A DNA stretch of 27,068 nucleotides from Actinomycetota bacterium (lineage in GTDB: Bacteria; Actinomycetota; UBA4738; JBBDTT01): contig JBBDTT010000181.1 in assembly GCA_040904285.1 (NCBI GenBank), positions 1-27,068 of the forward strand, read 5' to 3'. Below the pieces are notes generated by a model. It made no database searches and was not told the origin of the DNA. It was given only the letters and a program-made list of their open reading frames with translations. A program made the position numbers and the translations under genes. Positions 14,408 through 20,483 of this stretch are shown here, piece after piece; positions within the stretch are counted from its first letter, which is position 1; the number at the start of each line of letters is the position of its first letter.

Positions 14408-15376
14408 CTAACCGCTCGCGCGCTCCTCGGCCACCGCCGGCGCTTCGATCGGCGCCGGTACGGGCTCCGCGCGTCGAGCGCTTGCTCCCAGCACGATAAG
14501 GGCTACCGCCCCAATGATCAACGCGGCCGCCAGGATGGTCATTCCCGAAACCGGCTCGCTCAGGATCAACCACCCCAGAAACACCGCGATCATCGGGTTC
14601 ACGTACGCGTACGTGGACGCGACCTGGGAGCTCGTGTTGTGCAGCAGCCACGAGTACGCGCTGAACCCCGCCAGCGATCCGGCCACGACGAGGTAGGCGA
14701 AGGCGAGCAGCGAGGCCCTCGAGAACGCCTCGAGATGGACATCCGCGACCTCGCCGGTGGCGATCCCCGCGAGCGTCAGCAGGGCCCCTCCGGCCAGCAT
14801 CTCCAGGCCGGTGGTGACCATCGGCCGTCTGGGCAGGGCGAGCTTCGGGGCCAGGACCGAGCCGAAGGCCCAGGAGATCGAGGCGAACACGAGCGCGAGC
14901 GTGCCCGCCAGGTTCACGGCCCCCCCGTCCGCGCCCGAGGTCCGGGCCAGCAGCACGGTGCCGGCGAAGCCGAGGGCGAGGCCGATCCCCGCCCGCGCCC
15001 GGATCCCCTCGCGGTCCCGCCGCGCGGCGAACAGGGCCATCCAGATCGGGACGGTGGCGACGATGAGCGCGGCGACGCCCGAGGACACACGCTGCTCGGC
15101 CCACACCACGCCGCCGTTGCCTCCGAGCAGCAGCAGGCCGCCCACGATCGCCGCGGCCCGCCACTGGGGCCAGCCCACCCGGTCGCCCTCGGCATCCCCG
15201 CGCCGGATCGCGAACGCCAGCAGGACCGCGCCCGCGACCAGGAACCGCGTCCCGGCCATCAGGAAGGGCGGCAGCGTCTCGACCGCGACGCGGATGGCCA
15301 GGTAGGTGGAGCCCCAGATGACGTAGACCGTGGCGAGCGCGAGCGCGATGCGCCTCGCGTCCGTCGTCCTCGTCAT
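14408..15376 (-). CDS. EamA/DMT family transporter (YedA-like)
   Basis: [64 protein letters not shown]; about 10 TM segments. Confidence 0.92.
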
Positions 15377-15442
15377 TCGAGAGCCATTGTGCCCCACGTC
15401 CGGAGAAACGCAGGACGGACCCGGAAGTGAAGCGGGTGGAAG

Positions 15443-16525
15443 CTAGAGAGAAAGTCGCGGCCGGGGCTGGGCCGCCACCAAAATGAGTGACAATTCCTCG
15501 GGCGGTACCCCTGCCTCAGACGCGATGTCCAACAAGGTGTGGCCGGCTTCCTCCGCTAGGCGAACGGCTTCAGAAAGAAGCCGAGGTGCCTCTGGAGGAC
15601 CGAGGTTGCCGGGCTCATCGACACGCCACCCACGCGCGGATAGACCCTTTGATGCCCTGATGTATTCAGGCTCCTTCATTACGCGCAGCGTGCGCGCACG
15701 GTAGAGCAGCGAAGCAATCGATGTGCCCCAGCGGCCCTTCAGGGCCAAGAGTCGATTCCAGTCCACCCTTGCAGGCAGCTCATTGCGAATATCGCGCTGT
15801 GGCATCAGAAGCGCGGCGGCGAACTGTTGAGCCTGTCGCTCCGCCTCGGCTTGAGGGTAATCCGGGCCGTGCATCACGAGGTGTCCGAGTTCGTGAGCGG
15901 CATCGAATCTGGAACGATCGCGCTTCCCCTTATCTGCGCCAAGCAGGACCACCGGATGATCCTCAAACGCAACGGAGAAAGCATCCACCTGCCGGGTCGC
16001 CAAGAGCGGACGCGCCAAGAGAACCCCATGGCCCTCCATCAACGCAGCGACGTCGGCGACGGGTCCGGCATCGAGGCCCCACTGTCTCCGCACCTCTTGC
16101 GCCAGCATTTCTATTTGGTCAGGGCCGTCCATCGGCGTCGCGGATAGCTTTGGAACTTCGACTGCTGGCAGATCTACATATCGGCCTAGCGCGGCTCCGA
16201 AGCGTCTTAGGATCGCGGCGAAAGCTCGAGCTCGTCTGCGTTCCTTTGCCGGAGCCGTCCTGAGGCTGCGGAAGAATGCAGTGGCGACGCCGCTTGATCC
16301 ATCTGTGGCAAAGAACTGAAGTGGGAATCGAAGCTCCCGACCTATATCCTCCAGCGTTCCAACGGACGGCCGTACCAGACCTTGCTCTATCTGGCTGATT
16401 GCTGCGCCGGAGATACCCGTCAGCCTCCCTAGTTCGACCTGTGTGAGCCCGCGAAGTTCGCGCGCCAAACGCAGTTGGGAGCCGTCGAACAGATCTCGTA
16501 CGCCGCGTGGGTCCAGGCTCCCCAT
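15443..16525 (-). CDS. XRE-family HTH fused to ImmA/IrrE-family Zn metallopeptidase (DUF955)
   Basis: [35 protein letters not shown]; FRSLR; VDAFS; [16 protein letters not shown] (HExxH); [14 protein letters not shown]; [12 protein letters not shown]. Confidence 0.9.
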
Positions 16526-16531
16526 TGCTTA

Positions 16532-16537
16532 AGTGTA
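16532..16537 (-). promoter_or_regulatory. -10 element (TACACT) for a probably leaderless regulator mRNA
   Basis: Minus strand reads TACACT-taagca-ATG: a TAnnnT hexamer 6 nt before the start codon, with no SD. Confidence 0.5.
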
Positions 16538-16599
16538 GGCAGATAACCTCGCGCCTCGATGAAGCCAATCGGGATTCAGGGTCGATTTTATAAGTAGCG

Positions 16600-16644
16600 T
16601 GATATAATTAGGGGAGAGGATTAAGCGCGCTACCCTACAGGAGG
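16600..16644 (+). promoter_or_regulatory. Extended -10 promoter (TGnTATAAT) and SD for the nucleotidyltransferase operon
   Basis: TGaTATAAT at 16600-16608; AGGAGG at 16639-16644, 5 nt before ATG 16650. Confidence 0.65.
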
Positions 16645-16649
16645 GATCT

Positions 16650-17666
16650 ATGTCAATTGAAGACTGGCTGCGGAAAGCCCGTGAGGCGATCGAGGTAACC
16701 GACGACGAGCTGAAGGAGGCGCGGCGTCGGCGGGAGCTTATTGCGGAGGAGCTGCGGGTTGAGTTCCCTGGCGCTCGGGTCTATTTCAACGGCTCCCTCG
16801 CGCACGGTGACGCGCTGGATCCGCTCAGCGATTTTGATCTGGGGGTGGTCATCCCGGACCCAGCCCAGCAATTCGGTCCTGGCAAGGCCAGTGCTGACGA
16901 GCTCAAGACTCGTGCATCCGGCGCCATTCGGCGGGCTCTGATCGCCGAATACCCAAAGCTGCGTGTTGAGGTCGAGGGCCGCAAGCGGTCTCTCCTCGTT
17001 CGCTTCTCGCACCCGGTCACTCCCCGGGCCACGGACTTCACCGGTGACGTGATCTGCGCCGTCGACCATCCTGTTCGCGGGCTCTGGATCCCGAAGGATT
17101 CCACATGGGACCGGTCGGATCCCGAAACGCACACGAGGCTGGTTCTCGAAGCCAATAAGAAGACGTCCGCGGGCTTCGCGAAGACGGTCCGTTTGCTGAA
17201 GTACTGGAACGGGGCTCATGACGGGGTCTTCTGTTCGTGGCATCTGAAAGTCCTCGCGCTACCTACGGTCTCTTCGGGGCCGCAGATCGACAGTCTTCGA
17301 AGCTTCTTCGCTGGAGCCATCCGGCAGGTGACGGCCGGCCCGACACCTGACCCCGCCTTCGTTGGCCCATCCATCCTCCCCCAAGTAGACGCCGAGGAAG
17401 CCGTCAAGCGACTCCGGGAAGCCCTGGATCTCGTCGAGGCCGCCATCAAGGCCGAGGCAGAGGGACGTCCGCTGGGCGCCCAGGCGGAGCTGTCAAACCT
17501 GTTGCCTGAGATCGTGCCAGCTCCAGACTCTTCCTCGCTCCGTGATGAGGAGCGCGATGCCGCCAAGGCCCGCTTGGCCTCACGCGGATCCGTCTCGGTG
17601 GGGAGCGGGACCGAAATTTCCCTACCCCGAAACAGGGGGTGGAGCGACGATCCCTCTCCGAACTGA
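16650..17666 (+). CDS. cGAS/DncV-like nucleotidyltransferase (CD-NTase/SMODS), putative CBASS cyclic-oligonucleotide synthase
   Basis: Pol-beta fold motifs G48-S49 (FNGSLAHG), D61-x-D63 (SDFD) and D133 (FTGDVI), then GLWIP, WDRSDPETH, VRLLKYWN, SWHLKVLA. Adjacent to an E2-like gene and a TM gene. Confidence 0.8.
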   Translation: MSIEDWLRKAREAIEVTDDELKEARRRRELIAEELRVEFPGARVYFNGSLAHGDALDPLSDFDLGVVIPDPAQQFGPGKASADELKTRASGAIRRALIAEYPKLRVEVEGRKRSLLVRFSHPVTPRATDFTGDVICAVDHPVRGLWIPKDSTWDRSDPETHTRLVLEANKKTSAGFAKTVRLLKYWNGAHDGVFCSWHLKVLALPTVSSGPQIDSLRSFFAGAIRQVTAGPTPDPAFVGPSILPQVDAEEAVKRLREALDLVEAAIKAEAEGRPLGAQAELSNLLPEIVPAPDSSSLRDEERDAAKARLASRGSVSVGSGTEISLPRNRGWSDDPSPN

Positions 17667-17709
17667 ATCCGCTATCGGTCTGACGTGGACGAGCCCTGAC
17701 CCGCAGGCC

Positions 17710-18198
17710 ATGCTGACTTTCGAATGGGATGCCAGAACCAATCTTCGGGAGTCTCTCGTCGCCTCCTACCGTCCCACCATCACGAGGTATCTGATCCGCG
17801 ACTTGTGGGTTCCCGGCGACCTTCCGCAGGATCTGTCCATTGAGTTCTGGAGGCATCCGCCGTATGAGACCTACGGGCTCGCGCCTCATGACTATCCTCT
17901 GGTGTACAGCTGGACCCCGCGTCTCCGAAAGCACGCGTTCTGCGCTGGCCCGAGATGCCTTTGCAAGACAAGGCGTAGGCAGCGGAGGCGGACTCCGTCC
18001 TCGGACCCGAAGCACAGCGGACCGCTTTGCCTCTGGTACCCCCGCGATGAACGCTCGAAGCGCTGGACGTATTCTGACGGTCTGTATGCGCTCGTGGAGA
18101 TCGCGAGACGGCATCTCTTCTTTGAATTGGAGTATTCGATCTCCAGGATCTGGCTTGGCGAAGAGGCACCTCACGGCATTCCGGGCGCAGCGGCATGA
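17710..18198 (+). CDS. Stand-alone prokaryotic E2-like (UBC-fold) protein, as in type II-short CBASS
   Basis: YPLVY...KH...PLCLWYP...RW...L...HL..E...W.GEEAPHG pattern with putative catalytic Cys at codon 18028-18030. Start uncertain: ATG 17710 or in-frame ACG 17647. Confidence 0.7.
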   Translation: MLTFEWDARTNLRESLVASYRPTITRYLIRDLWVPGDLPQDLSIEFWRHPPYETYGLAPHDYPLVYSWTPRLRKHAFCAGPRCLCKTRRRQRRRTPSSDPKHSGPLCLWYPRDERSKRWTYSDGLYALVEIARRHLFFELEYSISRIWLGEEAPHGIPGAAA

Positions 18199-18701
18199 TG
18201 CTCGCTGGCGCCGTGAATTGGCACGAGACGTTTTGGGGCGCCATCGCCGTGCCAATGGCGGCGGCTGCCCTCGCGGCCCTCGTTGCGGTATGGGGCTACA
18301 GACGGGAGCAGTGGACGAAGCGTCGCGATGCTCTGAGAACACTCTTTAGCGAGGCACTTCGAGCTGTGTCTGATTACCAAGAGCTTCCCTACCTGATCAG
18401 ACGCCGATCGAAGACCTCACCTATGACCGCTGCGGAGTTGATCGCGCGCGCCAGCGATGTTCAGACCCGCCTGGACCTCCACGTGGCTCGGCTACAACTT
18501 GAGTCAAGCGAGTTGGGCGAGGCCTACTTGCACCTCGTCCGGACGGTTCGGTCTGAGGCAGGGCCGCAAATGACCGATGCCTGGAGATCGCCCACTATTC
18601 GAAGCGACAAGGGCGTCCCCCTGGGGCTTGCGTACCCGCGAGATGCTACAGAGCGGGCTAGGGCAGCTTGCCTTGTAGTGATGCGGGCACACCTGGCGTA
18701 A
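18195..18701 (+). CDS. Single-TM hypothetical protein, putative CBASS effector
   Basis: TM segment FWGAIAVPMAAAALAALVAVWGY followed by a helical soluble domain (LFSEALRAVSDYQELPYLIRRR). ATGA/TGATG overlap with the E2 stop. Confidence 0.7.
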   Translation: MMLAGAVNWHETFWGAIAVPMAAAALAALVAVWGYRREQWTKRRDALRTLFSEALRAVSDYQELPYLIRRRSKTSPMTAAELIARASDVQTRLDLHVARLQLESSELGEAYLHLVRTVRSEAGPQMTDAWRSPTIRSDKGVPLGLAYPRDATERARAACLVVMRAHLA

Positions 18702-18709
18702 ACAGCGGA

Positions 18710-18724
18710 GGCGGGCTGCCCGCC
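18710..18724. terminator. Hairpin between the convergent effector and etfA genes
   Basis: GGCGGG-CTG-CCCGCC; no U-tract. Confidence 0.35.
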
Positions 18725-18749
18725 GCCTGCATGGGAGTGACCAGGTGGG

Positions 18750-19712
18750 CTAGCCCTTGCGCTTCTTCACTTCCTCCGTCAGCTGCGGGAGGATCTTCAG
18801 CGCGTCGCCCACGACGCCGAGGTCGGCGATCTTGAAGATCGGGGCCTCGGGGTCCTTGTTGATGGCGATGATCCGCTTCGACTCCTTCATGCCGACCAGG
18901 TGCTGGGTCGCGCCGGAGATCCCGACCGCGATGTAGACGCTCGGCTTCACGGTCTTGCCGGTCTGCCCGACCTGGTAGCTGTACGGCACCCAGCCGGAGT
19001 CGACGATCGCCCGCGTGGCGCCGGTGGCGGCCTTGCCGATCGCGGCCGCGAGCTCCTCGATCAGCTTGAAGTTGCTCGCGTCCTGCAGACCCCGGCCGCC
19101 GGACACCACGACCGCCGCGTCCTCGAGCTTCGGCCCGGTGGCCTCCTCCTCGTGGCGCTCGGTGCGCTTCGCCTTCTTGAGGTCGTCTCCGATCTCGGCG
19201 TTGACGGCGACGACGTTCGCCGATCCTCCGCTCGGTTCCGCCGGGAACGACTTCGGGCGGAAGATGACGAGCTTGGGATCGGGACCGCCCAGCTTCACGT
19301 CCACGATCTTCGTGGCCCCGAAGATCTGTGTCTGGGCCGTGTCCGTCGAGGGCAGATCGCTCGCGTTGCTCATCAGCGTCGAGCCGGTGAGGGCCTGCAG
19401 GCGGCCGGCCACGTCGCGGCTCGGGTAGGTGAGGCCGAACAGGATCAGGTTCGGCTGGTGCTCGTCGACCAGCTGCTTCAGCGCGTGCGCGGCCGGCTGC
19501 GCCAGGTGGTCGTCGTAGACCGCGTCGTCGCTCGCGTAGACGGTCGCCGCCCCGTGCTCGCCGAGGGTGGCGGCGGCGTCGGTCGCTCCGGGCCCGAGGG
19601 CCACGGCGGCCACCTCCGCCCCGTCGATCGAGCGGGCCTTGGTCAGCAGCTCGAGAGCGCCCGAGTTGACCTTCCCGCCGGTGACGTCCGCGTAGATCCA
19701 GATCTTGGCCAC
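18750..19712 (-). CDS. etfA: Electron transfer flavoprotein alpha subunit
   Basis: [64 protein letters not shown]. Confidence 0.95.
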
Positions 19713-20483
19713 CTAGATCACCTTCGCTTCCGCCAGGAGGTCGGCGATGCGCGAGGCCGCGTTCCCGTCGTCCTCGATGACCTCGCCCGCCGCCTTCTCC
19801 GGCGCGGCGTTCACGGCCTCGACGGTCTGGGTGGGCTGGGTGTCGGCCTCGGCCAGCCCGAGATCGGACACTGTCACCTGGTCCACAGGCTTCTGCTTGG
19901 CCTGCATGATGCCCTTGAGGGTCGGATACCGCGGCGAGTTCGCGCCGGCGGTGACGGTGATGACCACGGGCGCCGGCGCCTCGACCACGTCGTAGCCGGT
20001 CTCGGTCTGGCGCTGGATGACGATCGTCCCGTCCCGGTTCTCGATGTGCTTGGCGAACGTGAGCGCCGGCACCCCGAGGAGCTCGGCCAGGGTCATCGGG
20101 AGCGTCCCCGTGTAGCCGTCGGTGGACTCCACCCCGGCGATCACGACGTCGAACCCGGCGCGCTGCACGGCGGCGGCGAGCACCTTCGCGGTCACGAGTG
20201 CGTCCGAGCCCTTCAGCTGCGGGTCGCTGATCATGACGCCCTTGGCGGCGCCCATCGACAGGGCCTTGCGGATGGCCTGGGTTGCGCCGGCCTCGGGCCC
20301 CATGGACACCACGGTGACCTCTCCGCCGGTCGTGTCGGCCAGCTGCAGCCCGGCCTCGACGCCGAACTCGTCGCCGGGGTCGAGCGAGCCCTCCACGCCC
20401 TCGCGCTTCAGGAGGAAGTCGTCGCCCATCTCGGGCACCCCCTCCGGGTTCGGTACGAACTTCGAAAGGACCACGACGTTCAT
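19713..20483 (-). CDS. etfB: Electron transfer flavoprotein beta subunit
   Basis: MNVVVLSKFVP, VVSMGP, ALSMGA, DALVTAKVLAAA, AGVESTDG, PRYPTLKGIMQAKQKP. Confidence 0.95.
   Translation of the reverse strand: MNVVVLSKFVPNPEGVPEMGDDFLLKREGVEGSLDPGDEFGVEAGLQLADTTGGEVTVVSMGPEAGATQAIRKALSMGAAKGVMISDPQLKGSDALVTAKVLAAAVQRAGFDVVIAGVESTDGYTGTLPMTLAELLGVPALTFAKHIENRDGTIVIQRQTETGYDVVEAPAPVVITVTAGANSPRYPTLKGIMQAKQKPVDQVTVSDLGLAEADTQPTQTVEAVNAAPEKAAGEVIEDDGNAASRIADLLAEAKVI

Follow-up and report, generated by a model that had tools for sequence, protein, structure and literature searches.

A single-helix membrane protein as the putative effector of a predicted E2-only CBASS cassette from an Actinomycetota bacterium

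Membrane proteins form the most abundant class of CBASS effectors (PMC12480259). How could such a protein work when it has one transmembrane (TM) helix, followed by a small helical domain that resembles no known sensor? This is the question raised by a short gene in the DNA that we analysed, a stretch of 27,068 nucleotides from an Actinomycetota contig (JBBDTT010000181.1), henceforth the window. A second question comes with it, namely whether this gene represents a new type of effector or another member of a class that is already catalogued.

The cassette and its surroundings

The gene stands last in a set of four, spanning positions 15443-18701 and coding for an HTH-peptidase regulator, a CD-NTase, a lone E2 protein and the putative one-TM (1TM) effector. 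The features of the region are the following.

15443..16525, minus strand: divergent regulator, CapH/CapP-like in a single chain, joining an XRE-type HTH to an M78/ImmA-IrrE metallopeptidase (Pfam and PADLOC)
16526..16649, no strand assigned: AT-rich divergent intergenic region with TGATATAAT, extended -10-like (read from the sequence)
16650..17666, plus strand: CD-NTase (cGAS/DncV-like oligonucleotide cyclase), 338 aa (PADLOC Cyclase model PDLC00779, E 9.3e-116)
17710..18198, plus strand: stand-alone E2-like regulator (Cap2-short), probable start ATG 17710, 162 aa (PADLOC E2 model PDLC00869, E 5.6e-26)
18195..18701, plus strand: 1TM CBASS effector gene, 168 aa (PADLOC Effector-1TM match)
18710..18724, plus strand: short G+C hairpin just 3' of the effector stop, possibly a weak terminator without a T run (fold)

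The last gene is an intact open frame in the ORF list and translation of the window, and a six-frame search of the whole genome finds it in a single copy. The start codon (ATG, 18195-18197) and the stop of the E2 gene (TGA, 18196-18198) share two letters, so that the ATGA overlap seen in a preliminary description of the locus is borne out by the coordinates of the open frames. That description had also assigned the effector slot of CBASS to this gene, and a CD-NTase and an E2 gene do lie upstream.

The cyclase, besides its PADLOC match, is recognised by the NCBIfam model CBASS_cyclase_b with an E-value of 2e-25, which falls below the cut-off of that family. CdnD of Pseudomonas aeruginosa (PaCdnD) makes a cyclic trinucleotide. 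Its structures (6P8U/6P82/6P8J, E 1.9e-15) are the nearest solved ones to the cyclase of the window; yet PaCdnD is too distant for the product to be assigned from this likeness, and it is a weak guess, by analogy, that the signal might be a trinucleotide here too. The three entries belong to clade D, as identified through PMC8096243.

The E2 open frame reaches back to a GTG at 17542, overlapping the cyclase by 125 nt, while, past the cyclase stop, an in-frame ATG first occurs at 17710, with no obvious Shine-Dalgarno sequence. In relatives, the E2 open frame as a rule meets the cyclase stop or runs across it. The protein matches PDLC00869 in two stretches, a pattern that is consistent with an insertion in E2, and a search against the sequences of solved structures returned no match to it. 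The regulator carries signatures of both its moieties (Pfam HTH_3, E 1.4e-12; Peptidase_M78, E 2e-17) and matches PADLOC RmrA at E 5e-95, with capP and capH matches too. A similar regulator adjoins about 8 of 24 homologous loci. In the window it is one fused divergent gene, unlike in some plasmid cassettes (L033, 436-2227, and L037, 126-2122) where the HTH and ImmA/IrrE genes are separate and lie on the cyclase strand.

As for expression signals, a GGAGGG Shine-Dalgarno sequence precedes the CD-NTase ATG in the divergent region 16526..16649, where a scan for consensus promoters found no full -35/-10 pair. Downstream, the fold of 18696-18750 (-25.7 kcal/mol, z -1.45) is not significant, and a terminator scan did not find the hairpin at 18710..18724. 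The cassette is flanked by a gene for an EamA transporter (14408-15397, minus strand) and by the ETF alpha/beta genes (18750-20483, minus strand). Its G+C content of 0.58-0.65, in a trough extending from 15250 to 18750, compares with 0.70-0.74 outside, and this trough between housekeeping genes suggests that the cassette was probably acquired recently by horizontal transfer. Neither an integrase nor repeats are visible in the immediate flanks.

Bounded by the EamA and ETF genes, the cassette contains no E1 gene, no JAB gene and no second effector candidate. A lone E2 next to a CD-NTase, with neither E1 nor JAB, is the arrangement of type II-short (E2-only) CBASS, and, as judged from its gene content, this is the type of the cassette at 15443-18701. 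The prototype of the type is the cGAS(CdnG)-E2 system of Serratia marcescens with its 2TM-SAVED effector (bioRxiv 10.1101/2022.05.25.493364; PMC12948482). Both systems combine a CD-NTase with a stand-alone E2, in the absence of E1 and JAB, and end with a gene for a membrane effector. They differ in several respects: the Serratia effector has two TM helices and a SAVED domain, whereas in that of the window a single TM helix precedes an all-helical domain; the cassette of the window has no exonuclease gene; its E2 has no sequence match to solved E2 structures; and its cyclase is nearest to the clade D enzyme PaCdnD rather than to a cGAS-like enzyme.

Class membership and genomic company

Had the gene coded for a novel effector, as the preliminary description proposed, no catalogue should know it. 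This is not the case. The CBASS set of PADLOC-DB holds two models named "Effector, 1TM", and the protein matches both, PDLC00666 at E 1.5e-45, with its residues 9-167 on positions 12-171 of the 174 of the profile, and PDLC00665 at E 2.7e-27. The same two models match every one of 142 diverse relatives, the full-length representatives of the effector family from which our main alignment (A2) was made. The Millman 2020 classification of CBASS includes "1TM" among its effector categories, and the term is used in this sense in bioRxiv 10.1101/2022.04.27.489752 and PMC12480259; the latter lists it among the membrane effectors, which together account for more than 40% of CBASS effectors. With PADLOC models of its own and a category used in classification papers, the family is already catalogued, and from its profile matches the effector of the window is a further member of it, not a new type of gene. 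It has the full-length HMM match, the single N-terminal TM helix, the size of about 170 aa and the position directly downstream of CD-NTase and E2 that go with the class, and no feature sets it apart from this class, which is defined bioinformatically. The window thus adds one more intact example of the 1TM class, and the defence cassette that holds it is an ordinary one, of a type already classified.

General domain libraries are less informative. In Pfam and NCBIfam no family reaches threshold against the effector, the best Pfam matches below threshold being TPR_21 (E 0.025), DUF4381 (E 0.11) and DUF4760 (E 0.15). No Pfam family covers the group of 142 relatives, and Pfam finds no domain in ten longer relatives that were searched for informative fusions. 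SLATT gives no match to the effector at E<=1 in Pfam, and the effector has one TM helix where SLATT proteins have two or more; a marginal match to SLATT_fungal (E 0.009) appears in 1 of the 142 relatives. The reported lack of any patatin, nuclease, TIR, SAVED, STING or Cap15 signature stands, since none was found with Pfam, NCBIfam or PADLOC and the structural model described below has no strands. In the literature that we searched, no paper gives a structure, a ligand, a mechanism or a published experiment for the 1TM class, and neither a paper on Mycobacterium abscessus CBASS nor one on the structure of E2-CBASS has anything on 1TM effectors. The residual interest of the locus lies here: in that literature the class is mechanistically uncharacterised, and the features that we give make it directly testable.

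Relatives are many. An exhaustive phmmer search, counted in clusters at 50% identity, gave 560 clusters at E<=1e-3, and with the threshold set to E<=1e-10 the number is 182. To see in what company the gene is found, a six-frame search was run on an unbiased sample of 401 genomes of the same phylum, 16 kb were taken around each match, and the six-frame open frames in the neighbourhood were searched both with an HMM of the family and with jackhmmer, for which the cyclase, E2 and regulator of the window served as seeds. The distribution is sporadic, the family being present in 12 of the 401 genomes, that of the window included. A pattern scan of genome contigs with an alignment of the family (A1) gave 2 loci, and a scan of viral contigs found no relatives. 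Plasmid homologues, annotated "hypothetical protein" in RefSeq, were examined from tblastn matches. The counts are as follows.

Genome-derived loci: 13 assessable, CD-NTase adjacent in 12, E2 in between in 11
Metagenome contigs with enough flank: 2 assessable, CD-NTase adjacent in 2, E2 in between in 2
Plasmids (tblastn matches examined): 9 assessable, CD-NTase adjacent in 8, E2 in between in 8

Taking the three sources together, a CD-NTase adjoins the gene in 22 of 24 assessable loci and an E2 gene lies in between in 21, a short contig that ends inside E2 (L032) having been left out of the CD-NTase assessment. Homologues found mostly apart from CD-NTases would have spoken against the role of effector; with these counts the adjacency is the rule. 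One locus (L023) has the effector followed by the cyclase, with no E2. The weakest match (L027, E 4e-5) has neither cyclase nor E2, and its high-GC map of open frames is ambiguous. Among plasmids the exception is L040, a split orphan. The 1TM class appears to be carried by plasmids and islands of Actinomycetota, nearly always in the company of E2-only CBASS.

Some of these loci deserve a word of their own. The orphan lies at 3842-4631 of L040, from the Streptomyces avidinii plasmid NZ_CP108617.1, where it is annotated as two overlapping hypothetical CDSs and is for this reason probably frameshifted; no CD-NTase or E2 lies nearby, and its neighbours code for an ISAs1 transposase, a macro-domain protein and a CHAT-domain protein. 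Contig 1 of one genome (G384) holds two CD-NTase-E2-1TM cassettes about 136 kb apart (L021 and L022), a divergent HTH-peptidase regulator being adjacent to one only, while the other has a partial regulator match some 5.6 kb off, at the edge of the locus. In another genome (G204), the CD-NTase match upstream of E2 and the 1TM gene (L020, 7050-7502) is only about 150 aa long, suggesting a truncated or frameshifted cyclase. A metagenome contig (ERZ27272687 k141_101510; L028, 1-8516) carries the same three-gene CBASS inside a defence island, with an SNF2/ResIII helicase bearing a NOV_C domain on one side and a DUF1156 / DUF499 / HEPN_Swt1 set on the other.

Fold model, topology and conserved residues

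What can a protein of this size look like? The AlphaFold2 (AF2) model computed on the alignment of 142 relatives has a pLDDT of 95.1 and a pTM of 0.84. It is all-helical, without strands, and its helices cover residues 9-62, 64-69, 79-103, 105-131 and 150-167. A hydropathy window detects one hydrophobic segment, at residues 12-35, and 145 of 170 relatives have exactly one such segment. In the model, helix 1 holds the TM segment and continues about 27 residues beyond it, into the bundle. The protein is accordingly modelled as a membrane-anchored antiparallel four-helix bundle, its helices packing back and forth, and the one N-terminal TM helix followed by a helical domain that had been read from the sequence agrees with both hydropathy and model. 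Three parts of the protein can be placed on the DNA of the window.

18231..18299, plus strand: TM helix, residues 13-35, with a small-residue stripe (hydropathy, family conservation)
18300..18698, plus strand: predicted cytoplasmic antiparallel four-helix bundle, residues 36-168 (AF2 model)
18375..18407, plus strand: signature Y61-x-E63-x-P65-Y66-x-I-R69-R70-R71, end of helix 1 and distal loop (conservation)

Orientation is suggested by charge. Over the 142 relatives, lysines and arginines average 4.6 in the 15 residues after the TM helix and 0.3 before it, and they are more numerous after than before in 141 of them. By the positive-inside rule, this excess argues for an N-out/C-in topology that leaves the bundle in the cytoplasm. 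The TM helix itself has a conserved face. Positions 20, 23/24, 27/28, 31 and 34 form a stripe where G, A, S or T is present at 59% (position 20) or at 70-94% (the others), flanked by 70-88% of bulky aliphatics, and the periodicity peaks near 100 degrees. Small-xxx-small patterns of this kind are typical of helix-helix packing in TM segments. When two copies of the protein were submitted to prediction of a homodimer with the same alignment, the score was 0.00 against a mark of 0.42, which is evidence in neither direction.

The bundle, too, is unevenly conserved. The signature falls in the peptide ALRAVSDYQELPYLIRRR, residues 54-71 of the effector; it is kept in 75-94% of the 142 diverse relatives and is invariant among 23 close relatives. 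The most conserved residues of the family are R43, A54, A57, Y61, E63, P65, Y66 and R69-R71, then Y111, L114, R119, G123, A129, W130 and D138. From the order of the helices in the secondary structure of the model, Y61 to R71, W130 and D138 should lie together at the membrane-distal end, and S87, Q90, R119 and G123 a few turns below this tip. Helix order and conservation, taken together, lead us to infer that it is the distal third of the bundle that is most conserved. Position 79, one of the predicted tip residues, is Arg in 75% of relatives and Ala in the effector of the window. The fold model, the conserved tip motif and the small-residue TM stripe are what is new here for a 1TM effector. 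They provide handles for studying the class: a fold of high confidence, a topology, a candidate ligand site and a candidate helix-packing face.

No recognisable sensor fold emerges from comparison of the model with known structures, just as had been supposed at the outset. Against the PDB, Foldseek found nothing below E 0.68, and a profile search of PDB sequences with the effector family nothing below E 0.47. The AFDB clusters gave members of the family and an entry labelled DUF4760 (TM 0.75, E 8e-5, 20% identity), and in a shape search of the ESM Atlas all clusters returned, at TM about 0.9, were unnamed ones from Actinomycetota. Among the comparisons were four-helix-bundle (4HB_MCP-type) sensor domains, found in chemoreceptors and in histidine kinases: Tar/Tsr, PcaY, TorS and HK9 (PDB 3VA9, 6S18, 3I9W, 1LIH).

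Proposed mechanism and its alternatives

The cassette has no other effector candidate, and the 1TM gene is thereby designated as its effector. The explanation that we favour, and to which we give a probability of roughly 0.75, is that of a type II-short CBASS effector of the 1TM class acting as a nucleotide-gated, oligomerising membrane disruptor. Upon infection by a phage, the CD-NTase, under the control of E2, would make a cyclic oligonucleotide. This signal would bind the predicted basic and aromatic cluster at the membrane-distal tip (Y61, E63, Y66, R69-R71, R119, W130 and D138), possibly at an interface between effector subunits. Binding would alter the packing of the TM helices along their conserved small-residue face, and the resulting oligomer would abort the infection by making the inner membrane permeable or by depolarising it. 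The analogues of such a device would be the cyclic-nucleotide-gated proteins with one or two TM helices, Cam1, Csx23 and Cap1 of type III CRISPR systems and the Cap13-15 TM effectors of CBASS.

For the 1TM effector, the most plausible reading is that it acts on the membrane as an oligomer. Cam1, Csx23 and Cap1 seem to be its closest functional precedents, the TM effector of the Serratia E2-CBASS being another. Each of the three forms a tetramer and binds cA4; in Csx23 and Cap1, one ligand occupies a central pocket formed by four subunits (bioRxiv 10.1101/2025.11.13.688252). They share with the effector a design in which a short TM segment is joined to a small cytoplasmic sensor; they depolarise the membrane as oligomers, as the effector of the window is presumed to do. 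Their sensors, by contrast, are CARF, CARF-like or mixed alpha/beta domains where that of the window is an all-alpha four-helix bundle, and there is no relation of sequence or fold between them and this effector. It counts against the proposed site that no nucleotide-binding fold or motif is recognisable in the effector. A bolder version of the mechanism would make the bundle an undescribed all-alpha receptor of cyclic oligonucleotides, with its Y-x-E-x-P-Y-x-I-R-R-R/W130/D138 tip, perhaps intersubunit, gating a single-TM pore, in a module that might be shared with the KilB and DUF4760 proteins; we hold this as a tentative proposal, with the odds somewhat against it. Were it true, the KilB 'kil/spread' proteins and DUF4760 would gain a membrane-permeabilising role.

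The link with E2, being nearly obligate, leaves room for an activation that may depend on E2 rather than on a nucleotide, and makes this the main rival. The 1TM protein would then serve as a membrane anchor, or else as partner or substrate of E2 and the CD-NTase, and be activated or recruited by E2-dependent conjugation. It speaks in favour of this rival that, of the 22 loci linked to a CD-NTase, 21 have an E2 gene separating the cyclase gene from the 1TM gene, and that no nucleotide-binding fold is recognisable, but one locus (L023) does pair the 1TM gene with a CD-NTase in the absence of E2, the cassette would be left with no other candidate for its effector, and in the E2-CBASS that has been studied the target of E2 is the cyclase rather than the effector. 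We regard this alternative as unlikely.

Less likely still is a reading suggested by a family of plasmid proteins. The effector might belong to a broader KilB/DUF4760-like group and be a constitutively toxic membrane protein of the 'kil' type, kept in check at the level of transcription by the HTH-peptidase regulator rather than gated by a ligand. The likeness first appears in a feature search of the ESM Atlas, where the effector falls next to a cluster with PF27072 (KilB) on 55% of its members, at a score of 0.95 and with 197 of 256 features shared. For comparison, we aligned 37 KilB homologues headed by P0176, a protein 95% identical to KilB of plasmid pIJ101 (148 aa). We know of no published fold for KilB. 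Modelled on this alignment (A3), P0176 has a pLDDT of 95.1 and helices at 2-65, 69-96, 98-112 and 120-146, on the same plan as the effector, and six entries are common to the AFDB top-30 lists of the two models, a DUF4760 entry among them. An hhalign comparison of the effector alignment with that of KilB gives a probability of 68% (E 4.8e-5, 101 columns), though at 13% identity and with the signature motifs left unaligned; against a single KilB sequence the probability is 0.8%. Precomputed annotations place PF27072 on all KilB homologues and on none of the close 1TM relatives, and the 1TM clusters are not among the results of an Atlas shape search with KilB.

What KilB (PF27072) and DUF4760 (PF15956) have in common with the effector is, in sum, an N-terminal TM helix with small-xxx-small spacing, an arginine-rich four-helix bundle of about 130 aa, and fold neighbours in AFDB. 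They differ in having no significant sequence relation to it and in conserved motifs that are not those of the effector; DUF4760 scores 12.7 bits (E 0.15) where its gathering cut-off is 25, and we found nothing useful on it in the literature. KilB, moreover, sits in plasmid transfer and spread loci, not beside CD-NTases. Judging from the models, effector and KilB share an architecture and may be distant kin or convergent. Simple helical bundles converge easily, and the tight linkage of the 1TM gene to CD-NTases argues for dependence on a signal, so that we give little credence to a constitutive toxin and retain the nucleotide-gated effector. In the KilB model, the TM helix, whose G10 and G14 are invariant in the alignment, is continuous with the four-helix bundle (kilB of pIJ101 lies at 1988-2431 of locus L035), and the AFDB neighbours of the KilB model include entries labelled DUF4760 and LemA.

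Finally, the window is rich in long spurious open frames owing to its high-GC DNA, and one might ask whether the gene is a chance frame, or a decayed one that has lost its function; this is effectively refuted by the homologue set, with its 560 clusters and its protein-level conservation of invariant motifs, to which are added the full-length HMM match and a fold modelled at a pLDDT of 95.
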